From Halomicronema hongdechloris C2206 (GTDB taxonomy: Bacteria > Cyanobacteriota > Cyanobacteriia > Phormidesmidales > Phormidesmidaceae), in NCBI RefSeq assembly GCF_002075285.3, contig NZ_CP021983.2:2850001-2882000 (forward strand): a stretch of 32,000 bases of DNA, read 5' to 3'. Of this stretch, positions 1,411 through 30,374 are shown one piece after another. Within the stretch, counting starts at the first letter, position 1; every line of letters starts with the position of its first letter. The notes under the pieces were generated by a model. The model saw nothing but the letters and a program-made list of their open reading frames with translations, searched no databases and was not told where the DNA came from. The position numbers and the translations under genes are program-made.

Positions 1411-1442
1411 GGGGATGCAGGTAAGTGGGCAGTAAGGTTTAA

Positions 1443-1519
1443 GTGTTGAATTTTTAGTTTTGAGTTTTGAGCTGAAGCATGGCTGGTAGAACTCAACACT
1501 CAAAACTAAGAACTAAAAA
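1443..1519. repeat. Imperfect inverted repeat made of TTTTGAG/TTTTTAG-type units
   Basis: TTTTTAGTTTTGAGTTTTGAG (1451-1471) matches the reverse complement of CTCAAAACTAAGAACTAAAAA (1499-1519) at 19 of 21 positions. GTGTTGA (about 1443-1449) is also complementary to CTCAACAC (1491-1498). The repeat lies 33-110 bp upstream of the ABC transporter start. Confidence 0.6.
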
Positions 1520-2556: not shown

Positions 2557-3921
2557 CTACGACGCAGCTGTGTGATGATCGGGAATGATGCGTTCTACCT
2601 GACGTAAGGGGCGATAGGCATATCCTATTAGCCCGGCGAGCAGGCCCAAGCAGGAAAATAGAGTATATTGAACGGCCATTCCTGCCCCTTCGCCCGTGCC
2701 AAATATATTCCCTAAGACCCCTGCTAATATCCCAGTCGGCTGCATGGCTGGCTCAAACCCATAGTCGGCCAAAGGGCCTGCGATCGCCAGCCCGATTGGC
2801 GAGGTGATCTGGGCCAGCAGGTAGCGAGAGGTAAATACTCGCCCCTGCACCGCTGGGTCCACCTTCGATAACCAAATTGCCTGATTAGAACTGCCAATAA
2901 ACACCCCAAAAAATGTTTTTGCGAACCCTGCCATTGCCCATATCTATGGCAGATGTCCTAAGCCAATCACAATTCCGCCGAGTCTAGACAAGATAGACCC
3001 CAGCAACAAGCCGTGAATTCGACGCCGAAAACCACCCCAAACACTCAGAAATATTGCCCCACTGAGGCCGCCAATTCCACTCGCCGCTTCAACCGTTGCC
3101 AGCACCGCAGTATTATCACCACTGCGCGCTAGAATCATGGCCGGGAAGATCGCACCGCCGATATTGCCGACTAAATTGGCACTGAGTAGAAATACCAGGA
3201 TGGCCAATAAACTAGGATACTTGAGAATATAGCGAAACCCAAAAGTCAACTGGGGCCATATTCTCTGCTGGTTCGGAGTGTCTATTTTGTTGGCTGACTG
3301 GCTCCCTTGAGGTTGGGGAACGGTCACCAGTGACAGGGTACTCATTGCCAGCAGAAAAGTGATGAGATCGAGCACTAAAATCCCTGTCAGCCCAATCACG
3401 TAATAGAGGGCTCCTCCTAGGGCGGGGGCCAAAATATTGGAACCGTATCCCTTGGCTGATTCTAAGGCAGAGGCTCGCGTGTAGTGTTGTGGGGGAACAA
3501 TGGTCGCCATGGAAGCCGATAGGGTCATCCATTGCAGATACCCAAATAAACCACTAACAGCCCCAGCCAGATAAAGATGCCAGATGGCGGGGGTATCGAT
3601 CAGCAGCAACAACAGAATGACGACTGTAGAGGCTGCCGCCACGATGTCTCCCAACAGCATCAATTGTTTGCGAGGGAATCGGTCAATAATAATGCCGGAA
3701 AACAGACTGGCAATAATGGGCGGCGTCGCCGTAAAAAATATTAGTAAAGATAAGGGCGTGGCTTGTCCGGTGGCTTCCCATACCCAAATGGTGAGGGCAA
3801 AGGTGGCTATCCTCGACCCCAAAATAGAGGCAGTTTGCCCAATCCAAATGATTAGGAAAGTTCGCAGGCTGGTGGGCGGAGTTACGATGGGTCTTCCTCC
3901 TCTAGCAAATAGCGAAATAGA
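2557..3921 (-). pseudogene. MFS transporter (EntS/siderophore-exporter-like) interrupted by an in-frame TAG
   Basis: ORFs 2944-3822 (292 aa) and 2557-2934 (125 aa) are in the same frame and read ...GLGHLP*IWAMAGFAKTFF..., with the TAG at 2944-2946. The conserved N-terminus [26 protein letters not shown] extends upstream of the tracked TTG. No ATG or GTG lies before the stop at 3922-3924. Confidence 0.75.
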
Positions 3922-9576: not shown

Positions 9577-9595
9577 AATGAGAGCAATTCTCAAT
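9577..9595. promoter_or_regulatory. 7-5-7 palindrome (Fur-box geometry) upstream of AraC copy 1
   Basis: AATGAGA-gcaat-TCTCAAT is a 19-bp inverted repeat with one arm mismatch. It lies 41-59 bp upstream of the ATG at 9536. Confidence 0.4.
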
Positions 9596-10016
9596 TGATG
9601 GCCAGACGCACCGCGTTGCCGTCTGTACTCACCGCGACTGCCGCGATCCCCTCAGCGGGCTGACTGTGGAAGCGCTCTTCCCCCGCCGGTAGTGATAATA
9701 CGGTGTTGGGAATGGTGACAATTTGGGCGTTACCTAGGGTTTCCAGAGTGGGAGCTGGCAATACGCCATTGGCTTCGATGGTCAGGGTCAGTCCTGCGTC
9801 TGTCGGAGTCAGGCGCAGGTGGGTAATGGTGGCCGGCTCGCTCTCTAGTTGGGCTAGCCAGTCGGCAGCAGTCGGAGCCTTGTCAGGGTCGGTTGTGTCG
9901 GCAGCCACAGGTGCCACGAGGCCACCAGTCATACAGAGGAGGCCAGCAATGCCCAGGACACGGCCCAGGGTCAGGGAATATTTCAGGGAACTCACACCCA
10001 CACGCTGAGTCATCAT
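9591..10016 (-). CDS. Stand-alone AMIN-domain protein with signal peptide, probably the 5' remnant of a TonB-dependent receptor
   Basis: MMTQRVGVSSLKYSLTLGRVLGIAGLLCMTGGLVAPVAA is followed by ITHLRLTPTDAGLTLTIEANG...GNAQIVTIPNTVLSLPAGEERF...AVRLAIN*. This aligns with the first ~190 aa of the three receptors. It stops where the plug domain should begin. Confidence 0.7.
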   Translation of the reverse strand: MMTQRVGVSSLKYSLTLGRVLGIAGLLCMTGGLVAPVAADTTDPDKAPTAADWLAQLESEPATITHLRLTPTDAGLTLTIEANGVLPAPTLETLGNAQIVTIPNTVLSLPAGEERFHSQPAEGIAAVAVSTDGNAVRLAIN

Positions 10017-10113
10017 AAGCTGTTGCAAGTTGTTCTCAGAAGCTAGGGCATAGCATAGGGGATAGGGTGCGATGGTCGCAGACCGGCCTTCGGCCATCGC
10101 AACTTCCCCATCC

Positions 10114-11329: not shown

Positions 11330-11866
11330 TTACTCAAACACAGGCGGCCACAGCTCAGAGATGGGCAATTCCCAACCCGGTAGCAAGTCTGGAACAGTTA
11401 ATACATCCCCATCGCCCAATGTGATTGACGCTTGCTCTGGGCGTCGAATTTCCACTGTGTGGTCTTCTGGATTCACCAAAAGCCCAACCACTGTGCCTTG
11501 AGTGAGGAACTCATCAATCTTGTCTCGCAGCTCCTCCACCCGATCGGTGGGTGATTTAACTTCTACCATCAAATCAGGAGGAATAGTGGCATAGCCACGA
11601 GGAGAACGGGGAAGCCGCTCAGCCCGGATAAACGAAACATCGGGAGCGCGGGTATTGGCAAGGCTGAACCCGGCACTCGATCCAGTAATCCGTCCGAGCT
11701 GCCGAGGTTTGACCCAGTTCCACAGGTTCGCCCCGACCTGAAAAGCAACCTCATCCGACTCATACCCAGAAGGACTCATGACGATAATCTTGCCATCAAC
11801 CAACTCCAGTCGATAGTCGGGATAGTGGGCTTGCAAGTCCTCTAAGTCTTTGACAGTCAGTGACAT
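11330..11866 (-). CDS. Uma2 family endonuclease
   Basis: MSLTVKDLEDLQAHYPDYRLELVDGKIIVMSPSGYESDEV...APDVSFI...PPDLMVEVKSPTD...EFLTQGTVVGLLVNPEDHTVEIRR. The ATG is at 11864-11866. Confidence 0.85.
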   Translation of the reverse strand: MSLTVKDLEDLQAHYPDYRLELVDGKIIVMSPSGYESDEVAFQVGANLWNWVKPRQLGRITGSSAGFSLANTRAPDVSFIRAERLPRSPRGYATIPPDLMVEVKSPTDRVEELRDKIDEFLTQGTVVGLLVNPEDHTVEIRRPEQASITLGDGDVLTVPDLLPGWELPISELWPPVFE

Positions 11867-11933
11867 AGGGCTTCCAGACAATCCGTGTCTGCCGAATTCA
11901 ATTTCCTGCCATTATTGTGGCACTAGTTCAATA

Positions 11934-16655: not shown

Positions 16656-17244
16656 ATGGTTGCCTCGCCCCAGTCCGTCACCCCTGAAGACTACCTACAG
16701 CTAGAGGCTGAAAGCCCCGTCAAGCATGAGTACCTTGATGGCGACATTTACGCCATGGCTGGGGCCAACGATGCCCACGTCACCATTGCCCTCAATCTAG
16801 CTACCCTACTCCGCAGCCACTTGCGAGGCAGCGGCTGCCGCGTACATATCGGATATGAAGGCCCGCATCGAAGCCCGCAACCGCTTTTTCTATCCCGATG
16901 TGATGGTGACCTGCGACGGGCGCGATCGGGAAACGTCGGACTACAAACGCTTTCCCAAGTTGATTGTAGAAGTGCTATCGGAGTCTACCGAGGCGTTTGA
17001 CCGGGGTGATAAGTTTTTGGATTACCAAGCCTTAGACAGCTTGGAAGAGTACGTGCTGATCAATACGCGCCATCAACGGGTGGAGTGCTTTCGTTGTAAT
17101 GAGGCCGGGTTGTGGGTATTGCAGTATTACACCCCTGAGACAACCACGTTTTCCCTGAAGAGCCTCGATTTTAGCGATACCCTGGCAGCCCTCTATGAGG
17201 ATGTGGTGCTGGCAAGGGCAGATGCAGTAGATGCGATCGCATGA
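16656..17244 (+). pseudogene. Uma2 family endonuclease with a frameshift
   Basis: ORF 16656-17000 (VKHEYLDGDIYAMAGANDAHVTIALNLATLLRSHLRGSGCRVHI) and ORF 16855-17244 (MKARIEARNRFFYPDVMVTCD...PKLIVEVLSESTEAFDRGDKF) are consecutive parts of one Uma2 protein in different frames. They join near 16851 (atc-g-gat-atg). Confidence 0.8.
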
Positions 17245-17992: not shown

Positions 17993-18364
17993 TTAAACCG
18001 ATGGAATCTTGGCAATGCTGGCGGATTGCAACGCCTCTGGGAAGTGCTTCCAGGGAATGGTGCCGTCGTTGCTGGCAAGATAGTGCTCACCAAACTTAAG
18101 CAAGGCTTTAGCGCTTTCGGTGGCAGGAACCTGGGTGAAGAGGTAGGTAGCTTTGTCTGGGGCAGAGAAGGCCACAGCGCAGGGGCTAGAGCAGGTCCAG
18201 AGGCAGCCGACTTCGCGAATTTCTAAATCGGCTTGATGGGGCCAAGTTTGATGAAGGATTTGAAGTTGGTTGAGCAACTTCGTTCCGTCAGATGGATCTG
18301 AGGTGTGCTCTTGCTCGGATTTTGCGTTGCAGGATTTGCAGATAAATAAGATATGTTTGGACAT
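17993..18364 (-). CDS. DUF1636 family predicted metal-binding (Cys-rich) protein, intact copy
   Basis: MSKHILFICKSCNAKSE...REVGCLWTCSSPCAVAFSAPDKATYLFTQVP...IPWKHFPEALQSASIAKIPSV. It carries CxxC plus C-x3-C-x3-C. It starts 5 bp after the stop of the binding-protein remnant. Confidence 0.75.
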   Translation of the reverse strand: MSKHILFICKSCNAKSEQEHTSDPSDGTKLLNQLQILHQTWPHQADLEIREVGCLWTCSSPCAVAFSAPDKATYLFTQVPATESAKALLKFGEHYLASNDGTIPWKHFPEALQSASIAKIPSV

Positions 18365-18369
18365 AGATA

Positions 18370-18654
18370 TTACTGATCGTCTACTAGATACTTGAACAAA
18401 TCATCGATGACAGCATAAGCATCTAAGATGCTATCTCCCATCCAATAGGCCGGTACTTCATAAACATTACCCTCCTTCACTGCTTGAAGTTGTAGCCAGA
18501 GCGGATCTGTCTTAAGACTCTCCAAAAGTTTCTCTGTATCTTTGGCAAATTCCGAAGTATATCCCCAAGTCCAGACAAAGATAATGTCGGCATCAAAGTT
18601 TTGAAAAAGTGTGCCTCCGCAGGCTGAAACCAGTGCGATCGCAGACTTTGTAGG
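18370..18654 (-). pseudogene. Siderophore-binding lipoprotein remnant (internal deletion, 5' end lost)
   Basis: SAIALVSACGGT (lipobox) is joined directly to LFQNFDADIIFVWTWGYTSEF...DPLWLQLQAVKEGNVYEVPAYWMGDSILDAYAVIDDLFKYLVDDQ, so about 230 central residues are missing. The first 7 codons of the tracked ORF (18655-18675) are IS terminal sequence. Confidence 0.7.
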
Positions 18655-19886
18655 GCAGGGCCATTTCATTCTCAAGGGGACCTAAAGATGCTAGAGTTTC
18701 AGGCTAATCCCAATGGTCCTAGCGTCTATGCGTCTGCCCCCTACCCCTACTACCCTCGACTCGAGGCATGAGCCTGCTGTAGAGCGCATCGAGATCCTCG
18801 AAGCCTTCGTTGCCCTGCCAGATGTCCGTCAGGCCTCTGGCAAACGACATCAGATGGCCTTATGCCTGGCGCTCTTCACCCTGGCGGTGACGGCCGGTAA
18901 TCGTGGATTTCTGGCCATTGGCGACTGGCTCAAAAGCTACCGCAGCGAGTTGATTGACCTCTTCAACCCGCCCAAGGGCCGTCTTCCCTCCTACAGCACG
19001 ATTCGCCGGGTGCTGCTAAAGCTAGACTATGGACAGTATTCGGCGGCCTTGGCTCGGTTCTTTGGCATTGAACCGTTAGCCGGTGAAACCTTAGCGGTGG
19101 ATGGCAAAGTCTTACGCGGGTCGTATCAACTGGAGACTGACAATCCTGACTCTCCCCCTCATCCCGCCATTCTATTGGTCAGTGCTTATCTGGTGGAGCG
19201 GGGGTTGATTCTGGAGCCCTATCAGGTAGAGCACAAGACCAACGAAATCAAAGCCCTGCCCGAGTTCATTAAGCAACTGGCGCTGAAGGGGGTGGTGATA
19301 GCCTTTGATGCGATTAGCACCCAAAAAAAACTGTCAGCTCATCCTTGACACCGACAATCATTACTTGGGTGCCCTCAAAGGCAATCAGGGTAACTTGCAC
19401 AAAAGCGTTCAGGCCAACTTTATCGCTGAGGACAGCTACACCGAGGTCAGTAAAGGGCATGGGCGACTGGAGAAGCGGGTCGTTAGCCTATGCACCACCC
19501 TCGATAACATCAAGCCCTGGCCAGGGCTGAAGACGCTCATTCGAGTGGAGAGTGAGCGACACTTCAAGAAGGGCGGGCAGCCTCACTTAGAAACTGAGAC
19601 CCGCTACTATGTCGCCTCGTTTTTAGAATCAGCGGAATCCTTGGCTCGGCGCATTCGGGGCTATTGGGGCGTTGAAAATAAGGTACATCATATCCGGGAT
19701 GTGACCCAGGGAGAAGATGCTTCGCGCATTCGTATGCACCAGTTGCCGCAAATCTTCGCCGTCGCTCGAAACTTCGCGCTCAACCTCTATCGCTCCAACG
19801 AGTTCGCCAATATGGCTCAGGCTGAACGACTCTGCAAGTTTGGTCTAGATACCCTCAAGGCCATTTTTAGAATGAAATAGCCCTGC
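18655..19886 (+). mobile_element. ISAs1-family insertion sequence (1232 bp) with terminal inverted repeats and an 8-bp target duplication
   Basis: The left end GCAGGGCCATTTCATTCTCAA (18655-) matches the reverse complement of the right end, GCAGGGCTATTTCATTCTAAA (-19886), at 19 of 21 positions. TTTGTAGG occurs at 18647-18654 and at 19887-19894, directly abutting both ends. Confidence 0.8.
18713..19880 (+). pseudogene. ISAs1-family transposase, reading frame broken in an A8 run
   Basis: ORF 18713-19348 (H-repeat-type N-terminus ...LPDVRQASGKRHQMALCLALFTLAVTAGNRGFLAIGDW...AFDAISTQKK) continues in the +1 frame as NCQLILDTDNHYLGALKGNQGNL... (ORF 19305-19880). The junction is the A8 run at 19323-19330. 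Confidence 0.8.
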
Positions 19887-19889
19887 TTT

Positions 19890-19920
19890 GTAGGGTGCGT
19901 TGCTGAACAGCAAACGCACC
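19890..19920 (+). repeat. REP-like hairpin with 5' GTAG, left of the RAYT gene
   Basis: GTAG-GGTGCGTTGC-tgaaca-GCAAACGCACC forms a 10-bp stem with a 1-nt bulge. Confidence 0.65.
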
Positions 19921-19965
19921 ATTTTGTGGGGCATCCTAACATTAATCCTTGACCTGCCTTCTCTC

Positions 19966-20514
19966 ATGCCCGACTATCGAAGACCTGAAATTGCAGGTGG
20001 CACCTACTTCATCACCCAAGTCACCTATCAACGCCAGCCCTGGCTGTGTCGTGAAATTGGTCGTCATGCGCTACGGACAGCTATCAATCAGGTTAGAGGC
20101 ACTCGTCCTTTTGCGATTGATGCCTTTGTGCTGTTACCCGATCATTTCCACTGTCTTTGGACTTTACCTCAAAACGACAGCGATTTATCCACTCGTCTGC
20201 GTCTGATCAAAACTTATGTCACGAGGCATTATGGAACTCAGTTAGGACTTGATATAGACGTTTCAGATTCTCGCAGGAAGCGGAAGGAGCGCAATCTGTG
20301 GCAGCGTCGATTTTGGGAACATTTGATTCGAGACGACACGGATTTTGCTCAATATTGTGATTATATTCATTACAATCCAGTGCATCATCAGTTGTGCCAA
20401 GTGCCAACAGAATGGCAATTTTCAAGTGTGCATCGATTGATTATTGAAGGGATTTATCCGCCCAATTGGGGTGACTACCCAGTTGAGTTTGGGCTGGAGG
20501 GGCGATGGCAGTGA
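19966..20514 (+). CDS. REP-associated tyrosine transposase (RAYT, IS200/IS605-like Y1 HUH enzyme)
   Basis: MPDYRRPEIAGGTYFITQVTYQRQPWL...FVLLPDHFHCLW has its HUH motif at 20143-20151. Also present are RRFWEHLIRDDTDF and YIHYNPVHHQL (catalytic Tyr region). The ATG is at 19966. Confidence 0.85.
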   Translation: MPDYRRPEIAGGTYFITQVTYQRQPWLCREIGRHALRTAINQVRGTRPFAIDAFVLLPDHFHCLWTLPQNDSDLSTRLRLIKTYVTRHYGTQLGLDIDVSDSRRKRKERNLWQRRFWEHLIRDDTDFAQYCDYIHYNPVHHQLCQVPTEWQFSSVHRLIIEGIYPPNWGDYPVEFGLEGRWQ

Positions 20515-20515
20515 T

Positions 20516-20545
20516 GGTGCGTTTGCTTGTCGCAACGCACCCTAC
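20516..20545 (-). repeat. REP-like hairpin with GTAG, inverted copy to the right of the RAYT gene
   Basis: The plus strand reads GGTGCGTTTGC-ttgtc-GCAACGCACC-CTAC. Its reverse complement, GTAGGGTGCGTTGC...GCAAACGCACC, has arms identical to the left copy. Confidence 0.65.
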
Positions 20546-20571
20546 AAGATCCGCGATCGCACTAAATTAAA

Positions 20572-21623
20572 CCTTATCGGAAATTGAGCCGATAGAATCA
20601 ATATCAGGAGCATCGACCAGGGATATGCCATGAAAGTGACCTATGCCGAGTTGCGGAGCAAACCTCGCACCCTCTGCAGTTTGACTGGACTGAGAGGGTC
20701 CGAGTTTGAGGCACTGTTGCCGAGCTTCGGCGATGCCTGGGATGACTTTGTGCGAGAGACCTTTGAGCGCGCAGGGCGTAAACGAGCCGTGGGAGCGGGT
20801 CGTAAAGCGCACCTGAAGACGCTGGAAGATAAATTGCTGTTCATCCTGATGTACTTTCGCCTCTATCCCACTCAGGCGGTGCAAGGCTTTCTCTTTGGCA
20901 TGAGCCAGGCGCAAGCGAATCAATGGATTCACCGCCTCACGGGGGTGTTAAACCAGGCCCTCGGCTACCAGCAGCAACTGCCGGAGCGAGAACCGGCGAA
21001 GCTGGAGAGCATCCTCCAACCCTGTCCGAGTTTAGAGTTCATGATCGATGGCAGCGAACGTCGCATCAATCGCCCCAAAGATCAGACCGACCGCAAGACA
21101 TATTACAGCGGTAAGCGGCAGGCTCATAGCGTCAAGAACGTGGTGGTTCACGATCGTAAGGGCAAGGTGCACTATCTGAGTGACACCTATGAAGGCAAGA
21201 AGCACGACAAGGCGATCGCGGACGAGAAGGACTTACGATTCCCGGAGGGCAGTACGTTATGGCAGGATAGGGGGTTTCAAGGCTTTGCCCCAGCGGGGGT
21301 GACGATTCAGCCACCGAAGAAGAAACCCCGCAAGCGCTCTCTCAGTACGATTGAGAAGATGAATAACCAAAAACATTGCCAGCATTCGTGTGGAAGTCAA
21401 ACACCACATTGGAGGTATCAAACGGTGTCAAATTTTGGTGCAGCCGTTTCGCAATTGGGTCGACCATTACATCGATGACGTGATGGAAACGGCCTGCGGG
21501 TTACACAATTTCCGCTTGACTTATCGGAAAATGCAAAGTGACGCTTTAAGCCAAGCTGCTTAGTTTCCAAAGAATTGGGAGAGATGCTGACTCACAACAA
21601 TCTCTCCCCTATTTCCGATAAAG
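20572..21623 (+). mobile_element. IS5-family (DDE_Tnp_4 / HARBI1-like transposase) insertion sequence; ends approximate
   Basis: The short terminal inverted repeat TTATCGGAAAT (20574-20584) pairs with ATTTCCGATAA (21611-21621). A subterminal hairpin GGGAGAGAT...ATCTCTCCC lies at 21577-21608. I could not identify a target duplication confidently. Confidence 0.6.
20630..21563 (+). pseudogene. IS5-family transposase with a +1 frameshift
   Basis: ORF 20630-21478 reads normally to ...KKKPRKRSLSTIEKMNNQK and then becomes nonsense. The +1 frame from about 21375 reads IASIRVEVKHHIGGIKRCQILVQPFRNWVDHYIDDVMETACGLHNFRLTYR...*, the expected C-terminus (stop at 21561-21563). The break lies at the A5 run near 21369-21375. 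Confidence 0.8.
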
Positions 21624-21650: not shown

Positions 21651-21956
21651 ATGGCAAACCTTGTGCCTGCAGATATTGGGAATCAACAACTTCTTTGTTT
21701 TGTAAAAGTTTTTAAGAGTAATGTTAGAGCCATGTCTGAATATATACCTCAGGTTTATCCAAGTCAAATTTTCCTTTTCAGAGCCAGCGACGGCATCTCT
21801 AGAGAGTTTGATAGTCAAACCTTGGGTTGGGGAGAACTTTGTTGTGGACCATTAGAGATTTTAGATATTCCAGGTGATCATTACACAATGCTTCATCTAC
21901 CTCATGTTCAAGTACTAGCAGAAAGATTAATATATTGCCTTGGTCAAGTTAAATAA
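21651..21956 (+). pseudogene. C-terminal remnant of an NRPS/PKS-type thioesterase domain
   Basis: VKVFKSNVRAMSEYIPQVYPSQIFLFRASDG...TLGWGELCCGPLEILDIPGDHYTMLHLPHVQVLAERL matches the C-terminal third of type I thioesterase domains, including the GDH catalytic-His motif. It begins about 25 bp after the IS5 end, and no upstream synthetase is present. Confidence 0.7.
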
Positions 21957-22082: not shown

Positions 22083-23090
22083 TTACACAACTTTATTCAA
22101 ACGACTGACTCGATACTGCTTCACCTCCCACAGTGGTTTATCCTTGCCTGAACTCCACATCGTTTTGACGGTGCCGCTAACCTCCACACGGGCTTCGTAA
22201 GTGCCCGATACCCTGCCTTCATGAGAATTGAAGTCAATACGAACCTCGGCCCAGTCGGGGTAATACTCGTCTGACTCATCCATAGCCAACACCTGACTCA
22301 CTTTGGCATAATGGAACCAGTTCCATCCCTCCTGCATCCACATTTCTCGCTCAGCAATTTGCTCGACCTGACTCAATCCAGCCCAACCCTGATAATAGTC
22401 ATAGAGGTCGGCAACTGGTCCACGGCGATACACCAACAGGTCTAATACCTCTAGCTCTAAGTGGCCCCAGTAACGTCCTTCTGGGAAGTCGACCAGAGTG
22501 GGAGCGAAGTTGTGGGGACCGAGATGAGTGCACCGCCAGACTCGCAATTTGCCTCCAGAATTCGCCGCGTGTTCAGAGCGGAGCTGGCGATATAGAGGAT
22601 AACCAAATCGTCCACAGGCAACATCGTAGCTCCCATGGGTACACAACATCATCTCCCGAATGTCTTCTGTTTCTTGGCGACTGCTCTCAAACTGAGGCAA
22701 TAAATCGGGTTGCTGGAGTAACGCCAGGACAACCGTAACTACTTGCTCGTCTGGAACGACAAACTCTTGTTTCTCAAACTGAACAAAGCCTTCTTCGGAA
22801 GGTCGCCGATAGTATAGTATGCGGGTATAGTTAGGCTGAGAGTATTGACAATCAGGTGCAATCGCCATTGCCCTCAAGCTGAGACCTTGCTCCTTCTTGA
22901 GCTGAGTGGCCAGATCGGCAATCGGTTGAAATTGGGGCTGAGCCTGCCAGAACTCTATGGGCCAGGGTTCTGGGACTTCAATAAATAGGAAGGCGTCGTA
23001 GTTTCCAGCAGATCCAATTGGATCTTCGCCGTTCGCTTTAGAAACTTCACAGCAGTAACAGAAATTAGTTAGAATCTCAGCTTTGGTCAT
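22083..23090 (-). CDS. Sucrase/ferredoxin-like (thioredoxin-like [2Fe-2S], Apd1/Aim32-type) protein
   Basis: 335 aa. CTHGSYDVAC is a C-X8-C motif (Cys codons at 22641-22643 and 22614-22616). CTHLGPHNFAPT is an H-X3-H motif (His codons at 22524-22526 and 22512-22514). An AGGAG Shine-Dalgarno lies upstream. The gene is co-directional with, and 93 bp downstream of, binding protein 3. Confidence 0.8.
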   Translation of the reverse strand: MTKAEILTNFCYCCEVSKANGEDPIGSAGNYDAFLFIEVPEPWPIEFWQAQPQFQPIADLATQLKKEQGLSLRAMAIAPDCQYSQPNYTRILYYRRPSEEGFVQFEKQEFVVPDEQVVTVVLALLQQPDLLPQFESSRQETEDIREMMLCTHGSYDVACGRFGYPLYRQLRSEHAANSGGKLRVWRCTHLGPHNFAPTLVDFPEGRYWGHLELEVLDLLVYRRGPVADLYDYYQGWAGLSQVEQIAEREMWMQEGWNWFHYAKVSQVLAMDESDEYYPDWAEVRIDFNSHEGRVSGTYEARVEVSGTVKTMWSSGKDKPLWEVKQYRVSRLNKVV

Positions 23091-23183
23091 AACTCCTTTT
23101 GAGTGATTAGTGATTGTTCATTAGATTGACTGTTAGTCAAGTGACTATGGGTAAAAAACAACAAACAACATTACATCCTTGAT

Positions 23184-24206
23184 CTATTCCTTTTCCCCAA
23201 CCAGGTACTTAAACAAGTCGTCGACAACAGCATTGGCAGCCAGTGGACCATCCCCAATCCAATAGCCTGGAACCTCGTAAACCTTACCTTGTTTCACCAC
23301 CGCTAGTTGCGACCAGAGCGGATCTGCTTTCAGCCTCTTCAAAGCACTGTTTGCTTGCTGAGCTTGCTCAGCATTATAGCCATAGGTCCACACAAACATG
23401 GCATCCCCATCTAGATCGTGGATTCGTTCCTTGCTGATGTCCTGTTGACCTCCCATCTGATTCTGGTATGCCGGACGAGATACCCCAGCATCTGCCAAGA
23501 TAGTTCCACAAAATGAGTCTTTGAGATAGACTACGATCTGATTTGGATAAATACGGACTATTGAAACCTCAAGCTGATTCAGGCGCTCGCCCATCTGATC
23601 TTTAAACGCTTCGAGTCGAGCATAGTAGTCAGTTATCATCTGCTTTGCCACGTCTATCCTATCCAGTGTCTCCGCATACTGCATAAGCCTTTCTTTCCAT
23701 TTATCACTATGTTCAAATGGGAAAATAACTGTTGGGGCAATTTTCGATAAAGTGTCATAATTTTCCTTAAGCCCATCTCGGTAGCTCAAGATAAAATCGG
23801 GCTTGAGTTGCAGAATCTTTTCTAGATTCGGGATATTCACACTACCAACATTTTCAATCCCCTTAGTTTTGTCCTTTAAATGGGGAAAATCAGCCTCTAA
23901 CTCGTCGCTACCGACTGGTTTTATACCCAAAGACAAGACGTAATCTAATCCTCCTAGAACAACGACTCGTTGTAGATTATTGGGAACGCACGTTTCCCCC
24001 ATCGCATGTTTAACAATATGGCAGTCCGATACTGGTAATGAGGGTTGATGGGAAGAAGAGTTTTGGGAAAACGTTCCACTGCAAGCTGAGATGAGAAGAA
24101 ACATAGCTATTGCTGACAAAACATGTCGCAGCCTTCCAGGAACATTACAACCATTTCCTGAAAGTATTTTTCTCAAATTGCCAATACTTGGTGTCTGATC
24201 AATCAT
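23184..24206 (-). CDS. Iron-siderophore ABC transporter substrate-binding lipoprotein, copy 3
   Basis: AIAMFLLISACSG (lipobox). The C-terminus is DPLWSQLAVVKQGKVYEVPGYWIGDGPLAANAVVDDLFKYLVGEKE. Confidence 0.9.
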   Translation of the reverse strand: MIDQTPSIGNLRKILSGNGCNVPGRLRHVLSAIAMFLLISACSGTFSQNSSSHQPSLPVSDCHIVKHAMGETCVPNNLQRVVVLGGLDYVLSLGIKPVGSDELEADFPHLKDKTKGIENVGSVNIPNLEKILQLKPDFILSYRDGLKENYDTLSKIAPTVIFPFEHSDKWKERLMQYAETLDRIDVAKQMITDYYARLEAFKDQMGERLNQLEVSIVRIYPNQIVVYLKDSFCGTILADAGVSRPAYQNQMGGQQDISKERIHDLDGDAMFVWTYGYNAEQAQQANSALKRLKADPLWSQLAVVKQGKVYEVPGYWIGDGPLAANAVVDDLFKYLVGEKE

Positions 24207-24262: not shown

Positions 24263-26890
24263 TTAAAACCTGACTGAAACAGAACCAGTAACCGACAAAG
24301 GCTCTCCTTGAGGCAGGCGCGCTCTATCTGAAGCAGATACAATAAATCTCTCGTCAAAGAGATTATCAATCGTTAATCTAAATGTCCAATTTTCTACTTG
24401 GTAAGCTGCCCCCAAATCAACTCGTACAAAACTAGGTACTGTGAAACTATTGGCAGTATCTCCAGCTCGTTCGCCAACATACACTAAACCTGCCCCTAAA
24501 CTTAAGCCATTTAAGGCACCTTGAGTAAACTCATACTCGCCGTAAAGTCCGAGACTGTTTCGAGGGCTATTGAGGAAACGGTTACCTTCTAGATCTGGTT
24601 CACCGTCGATAATTTCTGCTTCAAATAGGTTAGTGTAGGCTAGGATTACCCTAAAGTTATCGGTGATTTGACCAGCAATGTCTAATTCTACCCCTCGGCT
24701 ACGCACATCTCCAACTGGAATGACGAAGTTGGGATCAATTGGATCAGTCTCTGCAATATTGGTTTGAGTCAAGTCAAACAGGGCTGTGGTGAGACTTAGT
24801 CGATTATCGAATAGATTAACCTTGCCACCAATCTCGAATTGCGTAGCTCGCCTAGGCTCAATAAATTCACCGTCTATAGTTTCACCAAACTGAGGTTCGG
24901 TTGATTGGCTGAAACTGCCATAAATAGAAGCCGAATCACTCAACATGTAGAGTAAACCAACACTAGGTGCGACAAAATCGTCGTCTTGAAAGACCTCGTC
25001 ACTAATGCCATCTTTATTTTCAAACTGGCCATAACGCAGCCCAGCCAATAAACGGAAACGCCCCAATGTTATGAAGTCCTGAATATAGATGCCCCAATCG
25101 TTACTAATGTTATTAATTGGTATAGGGTCACCTAAAGGCGGTAGCGGGAAGTCAAAGGTGGGATTAGCAACGTCAATGATTGGGAAGTCAGACCCAAGCC
25201 TAAGTGGGAAGTCAGTCTCTGATCTGTTATACTCAGCGCCTGCTAGTAACTGGTGTTCAGAAGCTCCAATTTCAAAATCCCCTCTAATTTCACCACGTAA
25301 ATTAGCCTGATTAAAATCATCTAAAATCTGACCCACAAACAGCGGCAGTTCATTGTTGGCGTTAACATTGATAGTTATTGCAGAAGGATCTAATTCTCGG
25401 CGAGTGTCGAAATATTGCCCACTTAGGGCAATTGACCATTGTTCACTAATAGGTTGATCAAAGTAGGCAGCAACTCGAAAGTGGCGATTAATATCGCTAT
25501 TACGAGGGTCAGTGAAACTGCGATCAAAGAAGAATTCTCCATCAAAGAATTTAGCACCAGTTGTACCATCTTTTTCTAGCCGAAAATATTCAGCTTCGAG
25601 GGTGAGAGATCCTCCTCCTCCGGTTAACCAGGTCAATGCAGGAGCAACAAAAATTCGATCATCTTCAATATTGGGGACGAAAGAGTTAGACTCTTGGAAT
25701 GCGAGATTGAGCCGATACAGTAGATTCTGATTTTGAGTTAGTGGTCCTGTCAAGTCCACTTCTCCACGATAGAAATCAAAGCTCCCAGCTTCAAAACTAA
25801 TATCGTAACTAGGGGTATCTTCAGGCCTCTCAGTGATGTAATTGACGACACCACCAGGTGTTCCTGGACCGAAGAGTAGAGAAGAAAATCCCTTCAGAAT
25901 TTCAATGCGTTCAATATTAGCTAGATCTCTGACCAAGAAGCGAGGGTTATCCCGTAAACCATTCACGAAGGTTTGTCGTTGGACATCAAATCCACGAATT
26001 GTAAATTGAGGAGTGTTTCCCGAAGCACCTTCCTGCCCTCCTTGAATCACACCGCTAATATAGGGGGCTAATTCTTCCCCTCGTCTGGCGGCTCGATCTT
26101 GAATTAGCTCTTCAGTAATGACCCCAATGGAGGCTGGCGTTTCTAGTAGGGGAATGTTTAGTCTAGTGCCTGTAGTAGCATTGGACGTACGGTAGCCCTC
26201 TTGCTCCCCCGTCACCACAATCTCGATCGCATCATCAGCATCATCGACCTGGGCGATGCCTGGCACGACAGTCCAGACCAAATTACCGGCTTCGGCACTC
26301 ACGGTCGCTTCCGGTGGCGCATCGGTGCCCATAATCGCTACTTGAATGCGATCCTGGCCCACAGCCGTCACTGACACCCGGGCAATGCCTGCAGCTGGGT
26401 CGGTTGCCTGAAACTCGTCTCCCTCTGGCAGGGCCAGCACCGCATTGGGAATCTCTGCCACGAGGGCATTGCCTACGGTTTCTGTGGTCGGAACAGACAA
26501 ATCTCCGTCAGCGGTCTCCAATATTACTTGCAAACCAGTCTCGCTGCTTTCAACCCGCACGCCGGTAATTTCGATGATCGCCGCTTCAATTTGAGCGACC
26601 CACTCGGTAACAGTGGTGGCGGGGGGTGGGGTAGAGGGGTGTTGGCGGAGCCTGCCCGAAGGGCTTAGGGGTGATGGGGTGGTGGGGTGATGGGGTGATG
26701 GGGTGGTGGGTATTTGAGAGGTGCCCCTCTCGTTGGTATTTGACTCGCCCACTTGCCCACTTGCCCGCTCGCCTAGGTCATTTCCTGTGGCGGGTTGTGC
26801 CCAACCGAGGGCCACTAGCGTCGTCAGGCTCAGGGTGCTGGCTAGGGCATAGGAACACTGGACTAGGCCTGTTATGGAATGCGATCGCAT
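24263..26890 (-). CDS. TonB-dependent siderophore receptor with AMIN-type extension, copy 3 (divergent barrel, Pro-rich insert)
   Basis: 875 aa. ITGVRVESSETGLQVILETADG...GNALVAEIPNAVLALPEGDEF...IQVAIMGTDAPPE. Plug motif IERIEILKGFSSLLFG. Terminal strand SVTGSVSVRF. The low-complexity block PTTPSPHHPTTPSPLSPSGRLRQHPSTPPP is encoded by the G-rich repeat at 26637-26710. Confidence 0.92.
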   Translation of the reverse strand: MRSHSITGLVQCSYALASTLSLTTLVALGWAQPATGNDLGERASGQVGESNTNERGTSQIPTTPSPHHPTTPSPLSPSGRLRQHPSTPPPATTVTEWVAQIEAAIIEITGVRVESSETGLQVILETADGDLSVPTTETVGNALVAEIPNAVLALPEGDEFQATDPAAGIARVSVTAVGQDRIQVAIMGTDAPPEATVSAEAGNLVWTVVPGIAQVDDADDAIEIVVTGEQEGYRTSNATTGTRLNIPLLETPASIGVITEELIQDRAARRGEELAPYISGVIQGGQEGASGNTPQFTIRGFDVQRQTFVNGLRDNPRFLVRDLANIERIEILKGFSSLLFGPGTPGGVVNYITERPEDTPSYDISFEAGSFDFYRGEVDLTGPLTQNQNLLYRLNLAFQESNSFVPNIEDDRIFVAPALTWLTGGGGSLTLEAEYFRLEKDGTTGAKFFDGEFFFDRSFTDPRNSDINRHFRVAAYFDQPISEQWSIALSGQYFDTRRELDPSAITINVNANNELPLFVGQILDDFNQANLRGEIRGDFEIGASEHQLLAGAEYNRSETDFPLRLGSDFPIIDVANPTFDFPLPPLGDPIPINNISNDWGIYIQDFITLGRFRLLAGLRYGQFENKDGISDEVFQDDDFVAPSVGLLYMLSDSASIYGSFSQSTEPQFGETIDGEFIEPRRATQFEIGGKVNLFDNRLSLTTALFDLTQTNIAETDPIDPNFVIPVGDVRSRGVELDIAGQITDNFRVILAYTNLFEAEIIDGEPDLEGNRFLNSPRNSLGLYGEYEFTQGALNGLSLGAGLVYVGERAGDTANSFTVPSFVRVDLGAAYQVENWTFRLTIDNLFDERFIVSASDRARLPQGEPLSVTGSVSVRF

Positions 26891-27393: not shown

Positions 27394-27975
27394 TTACTGC
27401 GCCCCGGCTGCAAATAGGGCGCTGGGCGTTAGGTCCAGAGTGCTCAATTGCCGAGAGGGCACTGGCTCTTCCCCCGTGGCGGTGCCCAGTTCAGTATAGG
27501 TGTCACCTTCCAGAGTTAGCACTAATACCGTCTGCGCTTGGGGGTCAACAATCCAGTACTCCGGGATGCCCACATCTTGATATTGCAGGCGTTTGGCCAC
27601 ATAATCCCGCTGCCATTGCAATTCCCCTGGGCTGACGACCTCCACCACCAGCAACGGCGGCGACATGGTCAGCCGAATGGTGTTGCGCTGGGCCAACAGG
27701 GACACATGCTCGTCTCGAATAAGCGTCAAATCTGGGTAGCGATTTTTCGGTTCGCCCCGCACCTCCAACTCTAAGCCATGCCCCCGCACCCGATCGGTTC
27801 CTAGTCGCAGGGCAAAGGTTAAAAATAGTCGATTGGCGATTTGCACATTGCATCCAGACTCTGGTGGCACGGCAATCAATTCTCCATTAAAGAGTTCATA
27901 GAGCCGGTCAGTGCCATCGTCGTAGGCGAGATACTCCTCAAAGGTTTGAAATCGGGCGCTGAGCTGTTGAACCAT
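27394..27975 (-). CDS. Uma2 family endonuclease
   Basis: FEEYLAYDDGTDRLYELFNGELIAVPPESGCNVQIANRL...YPDLTLI...PPLLVVEVVSPGELQWQRDYVAKRLQYQDVGIPEYWIVDPQAQTV. Confidence 0.85.
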   Translation of the reverse strand: MVQQLSARFQTFEEYLAYDDGTDRLYELFNGELIAVPPESGCNVQIANRLFLTFALRLGTDRVRGHGLELEVRGEPKNRYPDLTLIRDEHVSLLAQRNTIRLTMSPPLLVVEVVSPGELQWQRDYVAKRLQYQDVGIPEYWIVDPQAQTVLVLTLEGDTYTELGTATGEEPVPSRQLSTLDLTPSALFAAGAQ

Positions 27976-28235: not shown

Positions 28236-29195
28236 TCATCCCTGCCGCAAGTACTGCCCCGGATTGATGCCAAACTTCTTGCGAAAGGCGCGGGCGAAGG
28301 AGCTACGGCTGGCGAAGCCGACGGTGTGGGCCACGCCGGTGACGGTTTTGGTCCCCTGCTGCAGCAGTTGGCGGGCATAGTCTAGCCGGTAGTGGTGCAG
28401 GTAGCCGAAGACGGTAGTGCCGAAGACCTGACGAAAGCCCCGTTTCAGGGCACATTCATTCAGGTGAATCTGCCGGGCCAGTTCCGCCAGGGTCGGGGGG
28501 TTATTGAAGTGCCGCAGCAGAATATCGCGGGCCTGGTGAATGCGCTCGATGTCGGCGGGTTTGAGGTTAATTGAGGGGCCAGGGGGCTGCTGCTGGCTCA
28601 GTGCATCATGCAGGCACAGGGTCAGCAGTTCCCAGGCTTTACTTTCCAGATAGAGCTGCTTAATCACCCCAGTGTAAGGGCAATGCAATATCTGGTGCAG
28701 CACCATCTGCATGGGGGCAGTCATGGTGCCAAACTGACTGTAGTAAAGTTGCTGGGGCGAGCGCAGCAGCTCCGGTAGGGGCAGCGCCCGAGAGCCGAGC
28801 CACTGGCTCAAGCGCTCTGGGTCGATGTGCAGGCTGAGCCAGGCGTGGGGATGCTCGGCCGGCTTAATCGAGGTACCCCCCGGGGCGAGACCACTGCCGT
28901 AGAGGCCATAGCACTTGGGGCCCAGGGGTGGATCGGTGTAGGCTCCTTCTAAGTAAAAGGTGCACTCCACCGGATGGGGACGCTCTTCAGCAGTGGTCAT
29001 CACCTGATGCCGTAGTTGGTAGCGGGCGATGTCCATCTGGACCCCGTCTCGCAGCTCAATCGAGTGTTGATACCCCTGGCCGAGACTCTCCGGATAGTGC
29101 CATTTCTCTTCAAAGTCTCCTGTCGCCCCTGTTGCGGCGGTGGCGCTGGCTTGAATCAGCTCGTGGTAGTCGCGCTGGGAAAGGGTCAGGGCCAT
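28236..29195 (-). CDS. AraC family transcriptional regulator (PchR-like), copy 3
   Basis: 319 aa. WHYPESLGQGYQHSIELRDGVQMDIARYQL...MQMVLHQILHCPYTGVIKQLYLESKAWELL...LAELARQIHLNECALKRGFRQVFGTTVFGYLHHYRLDYARQLL...SSFARAFRKKFGINP. Confidence 0.92.
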   Translation of the reverse strand: MALTLSQRDYHELIQASATAATGATGDFEEKWHYPESLGQGYQHSIELRDGVQMDIARYQLRHQVMTTAEERPHPVECTFYLEGAYTDPPLGPKCYGLYGSGLAPGGTSIKPAEHPHAWLSLHIDPERLSQWLGSRALPLPELLRSPQQLYYSQFGTMTAPMQMVLHQILHCPYTGVIKQLYLESKAWELLTLCLHDALSQQQPPGPSINLKPADIERIHQARDILLRHFNNPPTLAELARQIHLNECALKRGFRQVFGTTVFGYLHHYRLDYARQLLQQGTKTVTGVAHTVGFASRSSFARAFRKKFGINPGQYLRQG

Positions 29196-29451: not shown

Positions 29452-30186
29452 CTAAGTGTCTGACAGTTCTTCCGGATCGATGCCGCGAGCTTTGAGCATA
29501 GCCGCTAACCGTTCTGCCCGTTGGCGTTCCTGCTCGGCTCGCTGGCGCTCTTGCTCGGCTCGCTGGCGTTCTTGCTCGGCTTTTTCATCTCCCGTCAGCA
29601 ACATATTTCCTTGAGCATCGCACCAGCGCAGCCAGGTATCGTGCCGCCCTTCAAATTCTCCCTGCCAGAGGGTGAGGCCAATCCCCATCGGTTCTAGCCA
29701 GTGTTCCGACAGTTCGGCATAATGCAGCCCCCGCAGTTCATAGAGGTATAGCGGGTTTTCCCCCAACTGCCTGGCTGGGTCATAGACGACGTAGTAGCCC
29801 ACTCGCATTTGAGCATAGGTTTGGAGCTTACTGGTCAGCTCATTGCCAACCCGGTTGGAGACAACTTCCAGCACCACTTCCGGCGGTTTACCAAAATTCC
29901 ACACCAGATAGCAACGGTTGGGCTTCTCCCACCACGCTTCGGGTACCTGTACGTCTAAACTGATGAAGACATCGGGCACCACTGCGGGCTGGTTCACCGC
30001 GTGATAGATGCCAACGTTTGCTTCAGCGAGAAAAGTAGAGCCCCTCAGAGAGCTGTAGAGACTACTGACCAGCAACCGCTGCTGCTTGGCTGAGGCGAAA
30101 TTGTCCACCGGCGTATCATCCTCAGTGATGAGTAGATTAGCATCCGGAAATGTGACCTCATCGGTCGTGGCGAGTGGATTGCTCAT
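29452..30186 (-). CDS. Uma2 family endonuclease with C-terminal EQERQRA-repeat (coiled-coil-like) tail
   Basis: MSNPLATTDEVTFPDANLLITEDDTPVDNFASAKQQRLL...VVPDVFISLDV...PPEVVLEVVSN...YAQMRVGYYVVYDP..., followed by EQERQRAEQERQRAEQERQRAERLAAMLKARGIDPEEL. The ATG is at 30184-30186. Confidence 0.85.
   Translation of the reverse strand: MSNPLATTDEVTFPDANLLITEDDTPVDNFASAKQQRLLVSSLYSSLRGSTFLAEANVGIYHAVNQPAVVPDVFISLDVQVPEAWWEKPNRCYLVWNFGKPPEVVLEVVSNRVGNELTSKLQTYAQMRVGYYVVYDPARQLGENPLYLYELRGLHYAELSEHWLEPMGIGLTLWQGEFEGRHDTWLRWCDAQGNMLLTGDEKAEQERQRAEQERQRAEQERQRAERLAAMLKARGIDPEELSDT
29529..29591. repeat. 21-bp tandem repeat x3 inside the Uma2 coding sequence
   Basis: cgttggcgttcctgctcggct / cgctggcgctcttgctcggct / cgctggcgttcttgctcggct. 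This encodes the EQERQRA heptads on the minus strand. Confidence 0.9.
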
Positions 30187-30374
30187 GAGATTTCTGCCGT
30201 TGCCAGAACCAACCTCATTGTATTCGCTTTGCTGGAGCGACTCGGCAAAAGAGGGGCTGTGCGATCGCAACACGAGTTACTCACAGTTAACTCGTCCCTT
30301 GTCGACAAGGCAGACAGAGGTGCGATCGCAAGGGCTAGTCCTGAGTGCCCTTTCTAGTATGGCACCCACGCTGC

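Follow-up and report, generated by a model that had tools for sequence, protein, structure and literature searches.

A predicted thioredoxin-like [2Fe-2S] protein encoded with siderophore-iron import genes in Halomicronema hongdechloris and in several bacterial phyla: a candidate electron donor for iron release

In yeast, Apd1 and Aim32 are bis-histidinyl non-Rieske [2Fe-2S] thioredoxin-like ferredoxins (Stegmaier et al. 2019, as reported in PMC8482512 and PMC11138216). They carry the motif C-X8-C-X24-75-H-X-G-G-H (PMC11138216, PMC8482512), and in their cluster two cysteines hold the ferric iron and two histidines the reducible iron, which makes proton-coupled electron transfer possible (PMC8482512, PMC11138216). 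Apd1 is seen in the literature as a protein of electron transfer, and the eukaryotic members are referred to as 'electron transfer proteins of unknown function'. A cyanobacterial member is CctD (BAU16020), a thioredoxin-like ferredoxin (IPR009737) whose gene belongs to the cyanochelin B transport cassette of Leptolyngbya sp. NIES-3755; according to the preprint of 30 July 2026, the CctD class turns up repeatedly in siderophore transport loci of cyanobacteria, with iron reduction as a possible role (bioRxiv 10.64898/2026.07.30.741596). Here we analyse a CctD homologue of Halomicronema hongdechloris C2206, encoded in a 32,000-nt stretch of DNA (contig NZ_CP021983.2, positions 2,850,001 to 2,882,000) which is called the window in the following. 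The synteny of such genes with siderophore or iron importer genes is kept in four phyla, Cyanobacteriota, Deinococcota, Bacteroidota and, with one member, Chloroflexota, and is broader than stated in the preprint or in the first-pass annotation of this window. We propose, at a probability of about 0.5, that the protein is a dedicated cytoplasmic electron donor for the reductive release of siderophore iron, acting directly or via a partner. The first-pass annotation had named it a candidate siderophore reductase and had considered this role as not yet shown for the family in bacteria. Indeed, our literature search found no paper with a reductase function for the PF06999 family, but the preprint already suggests possible iron reduction for the CctD class and the idea is therefore not new. 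What is added here is a quantified cross-phylum synteny, together with mechanistic constraints.

The gene in question and the genes and signals next to it are the following:

22083..23090, minus strand: target gene for a predicted soluble, 335-aa Suc_Fer-like (PF06999) protein of the Apd1/Aim32 type, a putative thioredoxin-like [2Fe-2S] protein and CctD homologue (open reading frame, Pfam)
23093..23097, minus strand: AGGAG, Shine-Dalgarno-like (read from the sequence)
23184..24206, minus strand: periplasmic siderophore-type substrate-binding protein (SBP), Peripla_BP_2 (Pfam, E=1.1e-27)
24263..26890, minus strand: AMIN-domain TonB-dependent siderophore receptor (TonB-dependent transporter, TBDT; Pfam AMIN, Plug and barrel)
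28236..29195, minus strand: AraC-family regulator (Pfam HTH_18/HTH_AraC)

Receptor, SBP and target gene lie on the same strand with gaps of 56 bp (receptor to SBP) and 93 bp (SBP to target), exactly as the first-pass annotation had it from the open reading frames (ORFs). The proposed Shine-Dalgarno sequence is present as well, although its spacing to the ATG start codon is only 2 nt and thus shorter than usual. A terminator scan found no terminator-like site in the gap from SBP to target gene; promoter and terminator scans gave only weak consensus matches, at rates near those in shuffled sequence. The receptor scores 308.7 bits against TIGR01783, 'TonB-dependent siderophore receptor' (cut-off 223.5), and the SBP has sub-threshold FecB/FhuD-like NCBIfam matches. 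The AraC gene is likely the regulator of this module; a Uma2 gene (27394-27975) is located between it and the receptor gene. In H. hongdechloris C2206 the target protein corresponds to XM38_027240, with 100% identity. Its assignment to the sucrase/ferredoxin-like Apd1/Aim32 family is substantiated by its match to PF06999 (aa 25-222, E=1.3e-26, 94.3 bits at a cut-off of 34.9) and by a Foldseek comparison of its predicted fold. PF06999 was its sole Pfam match, no NCBIfam model was matched, and a PDB sequence search with the whole protein gave no meaningful match. Because the maximum Kyte-Doolittle(19) score is 1.04, the protein is predicted to be soluble and to have neither a transmembrane segment nor a signal peptide, which fits a cytoplasmic component of iron release.

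To describe the neighbourhood of the gene in cyanobacteria, one genome per GTDB species was scanned, which gave 316 relatives, and the best 80 loci were analysed with 10-kb flanks. ORFs were called and compared with the proteins of the window, the remainder was clustered and the clusters were named by Pfam. A TBDT gene lies within 10 kb of the target homologue in 44 of the 80 loci. With the published numbers of 4-33 TBDTs per cyanobacterial genome, only about 8% or less would be expected by chance. A neighbour-joining tree of the loci shows a clean split between one Nostocales clade and the remainder. Outside this clade a gene for a TBDT, SBP, FecCD permease or PepSY_TM protein is found within 6 kb in 41 of 45 loci, and the four exceptions are all at contig ends, with less than 3.8 kb of upstream sequence each. 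Uptake context is seen on every deep branch of the tree. The gene directly follows an SBP gene in 17 of the 80 loci (median gap 33 bp), stands after a major facilitator superfamily (MFS) transporter gene in 13 and after FecCD-FecCD-ATPase in two. As the arrangements vary (SBP-gene, MFS-gene, FecCD-FecCD-ATPase-gene, ExbB-ExbD-gene, gene-SBP), selection on the linkage seems likely, beyond shared ancestry. The commonest cassette has AraC-TBDT-SBP directly upstream of the gene (11 loci), and in Anabaena two complete AraC-TBDT-SBP-gene modules occur in tandem. On plasmid pAQ7 of Synechococcus PCC 7002 (locus L085), which carries the synechobactin biosynthesis genes, the order is ExbB-ExbD-gene, divergent from a TBDT-SBP pair; the homologue is WP_012305612, by gene order SYNPCC7002_G0135, exbB-exbD correspond to G0137 and (by order) G0136, and the TBDT to G0138.

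The linkage, which the first-pass annotation had suggested to check across cyanobacteria, is thus conserved there, and it also extends beyond this phylum. On Deinococcus plasmids the gene is located inside an iron ABC (ATP-binding cassette) importer operon in five out of five loci, in the order SBP-gene-permease-SBP-permease-ATPase, and in four of the five its stop or start codon overlaps with a neighbouring gene. Two Bacteroidota loci combine the gene with TBDT-FecCD-ATPase and an SBP gene on the opposite strand. In Ktedonospora the order is gene-SBP-FecCD-FecCD-FecCD-ATPase, and one copy in Ktedonosporobacter follows an energy-coupling factor (ECF)-type metal transporter gene. The constant partner is the inner-membrane importer, not the outer-membrane receptor, and this fits a step in the cytoplasm.

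The features of the protein which bear on its possible chemistry map to the gene as follows:

22614..22643, minus strand: C150-X8-C159 (CTHGSYDVAC), cysteines predicted to bind the [2Fe-2S] cluster (alignment, Aim32/Apd1 motif)
22512..22526, minus strand: H189-L-G-P-H193 (HLGPH), predicted histidine ligands (alignment)
22386..22673, minus strand: thioredoxin-like ferredoxin (TLF) domain, about aa 140-235 (Foldseek)
23049..23060, minus strand: N-terminal cysteine cluster C11-Y-C13-C14 (alignments)
22086..22385, minus strand: conserved C-terminal domain, aa 236-335 (alignments, domain model)

Both ligand pairs had been pointed out in the first-pass annotation, and they turned out to be nearly invariant. 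All four residues are identical when 29 diverse homologues from cyanobacteria are aligned. In a wider alignment of 91 sequences, comprising cyanobacteria, Deinococcus, Bacteroidota, Actinomycetota and divergent cyanobacterial paralogues, C150, C159 and H189 are found in 91 and H193 in 90 sequences, and the pattern CX8C...HX3H is present in all of the 120 best database matches. This conservation argues against a chance pattern. The full spacing, C150-X8-C159-X29-H189-X3-H193, agrees with the published Apd1/Aim32 ligand motif, its X29 being within the range of 24-75. In the sub-clade of the target HXGPH replaces the HXGGH of the family, the second glycine being exchanged for proline, and the variant HLGPH is common to the target and its closest homologues P0003, P0005 and P0008. 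Outside cyanobacteria also the fourth ligand position was seen to vary in some of the linked lineages, with H-x3-C in two Bacteroidota (L088, L095) and H-x3-D in two Ktedonobacteria (L090, L094); judged from these sequences, this hints at a tuned cluster chemistry.

An AlphaFold2 model of the target (predicted local distance difference test, pLDDT, 92; predicted template-modelling score, pTM, 0.89) was compared with known structures by Foldseek. The top PDB matches were the TLF of Aquifex aeolicus, 1F37/1M2A (target-normalised template-modelling score 0.66-0.69, probability 1.00), followed by HydB/NuoE-type TLF domains and FeSI of A. vinelandii, 5ABR. The cluster domain is thus modelled with the fold of a thioredoxin-like [2Fe-2S] ferredoxin, and from its ligand residues the protein is predicted to bind a bis-histidinyl [2Fe-2S] cluster. 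The N-terminal cysteines, with the family consensus C-x-x-C and C13 present in 89 of 91 sequences, sit in the model at the start of helix 13-19. The C-terminal domain of about 100 aa lies beyond the Pfam match and is conserved in two homologue alignments. Modelled alone (pLDDT 91.6), it forms one long helix packed on a four-stranded antiparallel sheet. Neither Foldseek (best E=0.16, not significant) nor a PDB profile search gave a meaningful match for it, and we did not assign it to a fold family, as only a generic helix-plus-sheet likeness to VirB8, cystatin and NTF2-like proteins was seen. The sampled bacterial family members all have 114-167 aa beyond the last ligand, and a C-terminal tail of this kind was therefore rejected as a marker of importer-linked lineages. 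Outside Cyanobacteria and Deinococcus this tail is too divergent to be detected by a cyanobacterial profile. In Aim32 presumably about 58 aa follow the last ligand, if one counts from H253 (PMC8482512) to what we take to be the length of that protein.

How does the protein compare with the systems described so far? With Apd1 and Aim32 it shares the Pfam family, the motif CX8C-Xn-HX3H and the TLF fold of the model. It differs from them by HLGPH in place of HXGGH, the additional C-terminal domain and the N-terminal cysteine cluster. Furthermore, the C-terminal tryptophan targeting tripeptide of the eukaryotic proteins is absent, as the target ends with ...NKVV, and its iron-import genomic context has no eukaryotic counterpart. 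CctD is 46% identical to the target over 361 aa, that is over the full length (E=3e-113), belongs to the same family with the same ligands and is likewise encoded behind an AMIN-TBDT and an SBP gene. However, the cyanochelin cassette, whose role in uptake is validated by experiment, has an MFS gene between SBP and cctD, and cctD overlaps with permease genes, whereas no permease genes follow the target gene and a remnant of a nonribosomal peptide synthetase (NRPS) gene and transposase genes are found instead. Cyanochelin is not supported as the cognate siderophore; since receptor and SBP share no more than 34-36% identity with CctA and CctB, the operon probably serves a different one.

The stretch behind the target gene, up to a second gene of possible interest, is composed as follows:

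21651..21956, plus strand: 3' remnant of an NRPS terminal (thioesterase) module, 101 aa (blastx)
20630-21478, plus strand: DDE_Tnp_4 transposase (Pfam)
19900-20514, plus strand: IS200-like Y1 transposase (Pfam)
18713-19348 and 19305-19880, plus strand: split DDE_Tnp_1 transposase (Pfam)
18370-18675, minus strand: C-terminal fragment of a fourth Peripla_BP_2 SBP gene, truncated by the transposase at 18713-19880
17993-18364, minus strand: DUF1636 gene, 123 aa (PF07845, E=9e-41)

ORF 21651-21956 has no Pfam match. In blastx it corresponds to aa ~1254-1356 of NRPSs of ~1365 aa with the organisation condensation-adenylation-thiolation-thioesterase (35-41% identity, E~1e-22). It converges on the target gene, and its 5' side is cut off by the transposase genes. 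As this ORF is an NRPS thioesterase remnant, the uptake operon once adjoined a biosynthetic gene of the peptide-siderophore type. The insertion-sequence block at 18713-21478 (plus strand) separates a decayed fourth module from the target operon.

Siderophore reductases of the FhuF/FchR type resemble the target in the role proposed here, that of a soluble cytoplasmic [2Fe-2S] protein encoded with uptake genes and reducing Fe(III)-siderophores. In contrast to them, the target has neither a FhuF or FhuF_C Pfam domain nor the motif CCx10Cx2C, and there is no relationship in sequence or fold; in the literature FhuF has a novel fold of its own and an all-cysteine cluster of unusual geometry. The FAD_binding_9 and SIP domains of the SIP/ViuB/YqjH reductases were not found in it by Pfam either. 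The first-pass annotation had seen no FhuF or SIP/ViuB reductase in the window. This was borne out: FhuF, SIP/ViuB, PepSY_TM and P450 domains were absent from all window ORFs of at least 150 aa, from the shorter gap ORFs tested and from the left-end ORF tested. Also among the annotated recurrent neighbour-gene clusters of the 80 loci there is no FhuF- or SIP-type reductase. The first-pass annotation had, however, overlooked the DUF1636 gene, the second one of thioredoxin-like-ferredoxin type in the window. DUF1636 is placed in the literature by remote homology among the thioredoxin-like [2Fe-2S] ferredoxins. Its product resembles the target in the predicted TLF-type fold and in the genomic niche directly after an SBP gene, but it is a single domain of 123 aa with an all-cysteine pattern, CxxC...Cx3Cx3C, and has no detectable sequence similarity to the target. 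Two apparently unrelated proteins of predicted TLF type thus share this niche. In the window the DUF1636 gene is directly downstream of the truncated fourth SBP fragment, and the same position after an SBP gene is seen in L028, L033 and L077, loci which hold a Suc_Fer-like gene too. In Streptomyces coelicolor the gene for a thioredoxin-like ferredoxin, SCO5830, possibly a member of PF06999, is located downstream of a site at which the iron regulator DmdR1 is predicted to bind.

PepSY_TM we take to be the family of the FoxB-type membrane siderophore reductases. These are also encoded in siderophore uptake cassettes and co-occur with the Suc_Fer-like gene in eight loci with the order TBDT-PepSY_TM-MFS-Suc_Fer-like (L008, L009, L011, L012, L014, L023, L024 and L054); L088 belongs here too, and a PepSY_TM gene is found at the start of the Chondrinema locus. 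They are integral membrane proteins, whereas the target is predicted to be soluble and has no PepSY_TM match in Pfam. As both are found in one cassette, partnership rather than equivalence is suggested, and the Suc_Fer-like protein could be the cytoplasmic electron donor of the membrane reductase. To our knowledge, no such donor has been established for FoxB-type reductases.

In the mechanism that we propose, the TLF domain would hold its [2Fe-2S] cluster via C150, C159, H189 and H193 and would be flanked by an N-terminal thioredoxin-like domain and a C-terminal alpha/beta domain specific to the bacterial proteins. The gene is probably co-expressed with the upstream AMIN-TBDT and SBP genes, and its product would act on the ferric siderophore after passage through the inner membrane. 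One electron would then come from the reduced cluster, probably proton-coupled via the histidine ligands, and would convert the Fe(III)-siderophore to weakly bound Fe(II). Delivery may be direct or through another reductase as partner, for instance the FoxB-type PepSY_TM protein of some cassettes, and the electrons would probably come from photosynthetic ferredoxin, ferredoxin-NADP reductase (FNR) or NAD(P)H. Cluster binding, co-transcription, electron acceptor and upstream electron donor are elements which we infer. The potentials of [2Fe-2S] clusters tend to be higher with histidine ligands than with cysteines only, and those of ferric hydroxamates and catecholates are very low. This is a difficulty for the proposed role, and direct reduction may therefore need to be coupled to the capture of Fe(II) or to protonation.

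Several further observations weigh against a role in iron release. The sole experiment on this protein class so far was neutral to negative: in Synechocystis, CctA and CctB were sufficient to restore growth on cyanochelin, and CctD was dispensable there; its function, as the authors put it, 'remains unresolved' (bioRxiv 10.64898/2026.07.30.741596). Complementation by the host or the photolability of cyanochelin may be the cause of this result. Of the three TBDT-SBP modules that are intact in the window, a single one carries the target gene, which is thus not an obligatory part of such a module. The eight cassettes with PepSY_TM have neither an SBP nor an ABC permease gene, and since they possess a FoxB-type protein already, the Suc_Fer-like gene does not simply fill the slot of a missing reductase. 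No iron context was seen at the family loci of Tsukamurella, Ferruginibacter, a Phototrophicaceae metagenome-assembled genome (MAG) and a Pseudomonadales MAG; the linkage is therefore a property of several lineages and not of PF06999 as a whole. As to expression, the gene tables consulted gave no expression values for Anabaena (alr2594 and its neighbours, all2608-all2618) or for G0135 of PCC 7002. A table which we took to list significantly regulated genes includes G0137 and G0138 but lacks the inferred G0135, a weak point in the same direction.

The most extensive departure concerns the Nostocales clade. In 35 of the 80 loci, which form this one derived and monophyletic clade, the gene stands after NRPS-P450-P450-(SDR or TauD), SDR being a short-chain dehydrogenase/reductase, and before a gene for a multidrug and toxic compound extrusion (MATE) exporter. 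Uptake genes are located within 6 kb in only four of these 35 loci, and in one example viewed over 41 kb none was found in the 20 kb downstream. From this one might regard the protein as a ferredoxin-type partner of oxygenases (P450, TauD-type) which tailor, recycle or degrade the siderophore, not as a component of iron release. P450s require an external Fe-S electron donor, P450 genes also occur within 7 kb in Ktedonospora, Ktedonosporobacter and one Pseudomonadales locus, and the NRPS remnant of the window points towards the target gene. We nevertheless consider this explanation unlikely: the P450 context belongs to a single clade nested in the tree among sequences with uptake context, there is no P450 or other oxygenase in the window or in most uptake cassettes, the Deinococcus operons consist of importer genes only, and in Ktedonospora the P450 is fused to a reductase and thus self-sufficient. 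A function in general redox or stress metabolism, which has been proposed for Aim32 and Apd1 of yeast, with no specific part in siderophore use, appears the least probable of all. Here the linkage would reflect that an iron-demanding protein is co-expressed under iron regulation, or hitch-hiking on mobile iron islands. The dispensability of CctD and the members without iron context would agree with it, and the loci are indeed rich in transposases and often on plasmids. Hitch-hiking, however, would not keep the linkage in four phyla in which gene orders differ and junctions overlap and are translationally coupled.

Two more explanations remain within iron metabolism, and both seem improbable to us. 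The protein could be a sensor for iron, Fe-S clusters or redox state, in which the loading or oxidation state of a labile, histidine-ligated cluster reports the delivery of iron to the cytoplasm, with a modulating effect on the AraC regulator or on the importer. Histidine-ligated [2Fe-2S] clusters are labile and serve in sensing, the NEET proteins being an example. AraC-TBDT-SBP-gene is, moreover, not only the commonest cassette but was duplicated as a unit in Anabaena, and an AraC gene is located upstream also in the window. On the other hand, no adjacent AraC gene was seen in the examined stretches of the Deinococcus, Bacteroidota and Ktedonospora operons or in the cyanochelin cassette, and Pfam found no DNA-binding or known signalling domain in the target. 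To a similarly low degree we would expect an iron acceptor or chaperone, capturing the iron released from the siderophore, possibly to build its own cluster, and passing it on to the biogenesis of Fe-S or iron proteins. The proximity to importer genes, the extra conserved cysteines at the N-terminus and a conserved C-terminal domain without assigned function would suit such a protein, but ligand set and predicted fold are those of an electron-transfer ferredoxin, as is the description of Apd1, and Pfam and PDB sequence searches gave no similarity to known Fe-S scaffolds or chaperones.

Summarizing these points, the candidate status given by the first-pass annotation gains from linkage, fold, ligands and predicted solubility and is weakened by the dispensability of CctD, the coexistence with PepSY_TM and the P450 clade. 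On account of the latter three, and because a reductase activity of the protein is purely what we infer, we favour the term 'dedicated electron donor' over 'the reductase'. The P450 clade, the coexistence with PepSY_TM and the presence in one of three modules of the window would all fit a protein whose basic activity is the donation of electrons and which would have been put to use chiefly in siderophore-iron release, with P450s as its partners in one clade.

In full, the clusters of the Nostocales clade have the order NRPS-pyridoxal-phosphate (PLP) decarboxylase-NRPS-NRPS(thioesterase)-P450-P450-(SDR or TauD)-Suc_Fer-like-MATE-(SDR)-O-methyltransferase, with a PvdQ-like penicillin amidase nearby. 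Such an NRPS cluster was observed in L017, L020, L025, L027, L030 and about 30 other Nostocales loci, as well as in L100, a plasmid of Nostoc sp. UHCC 0926. In the window of H. hongdechloris, five genes or gene fragments of the Uma2 family (putative restriction endonuclease-like) are scattered among the three AraC/TBDT/SBP modules. These and the other remaining features are:

1639-2238, 11330-11881, 16855-17244, 27394-27975 and 29452-30273: Uma2-family genes or fragments
9591-10097, minus strand: isolated AMIN-domain ORF, 168 aa, likely a TBDT fragment
2944-3822, minus strand: MFS ORF, 292 aa, behind the first SBP gene, probably truncated
1-1503, minus strand: ABC exporter (ABC_membrane and ABC_tran), running past the left end of the window

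For the release of iron from imported siderophores in cyanobacteria, a widely conserved, importer-linked Fe-S protein is an obvious candidate. More tentatively, the bacterial Suc_Fer-like proteins might be seen as a third soluble class of siderophore-iron-release proteins beside FhuF and the FAD/SIP type, or else as the missing cytoplasmic donor of FoxB. If regarded as such a class, they would possibly work by proton-coupled one-electron reduction and be spread over Cyanobacteriota, Deinococcota, Bacteroidota and Chloroflexota; their C-terminal domain would then be a module for binding the substrate or the partner. The pAQ7 locus of Synechococcus PCC 7002 is genetically tractable, and Anabaena PCC 7120 is likewise suited to direct testing. 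If the proposed role is true, the few known types of siderophore-iron-release protein would be joined by a new class, the protein that supplies FoxB-type reductases with electrons from the cytoplasm would possibly be identified, and a first physiological role would be known for the Apd1/Aim32 family.

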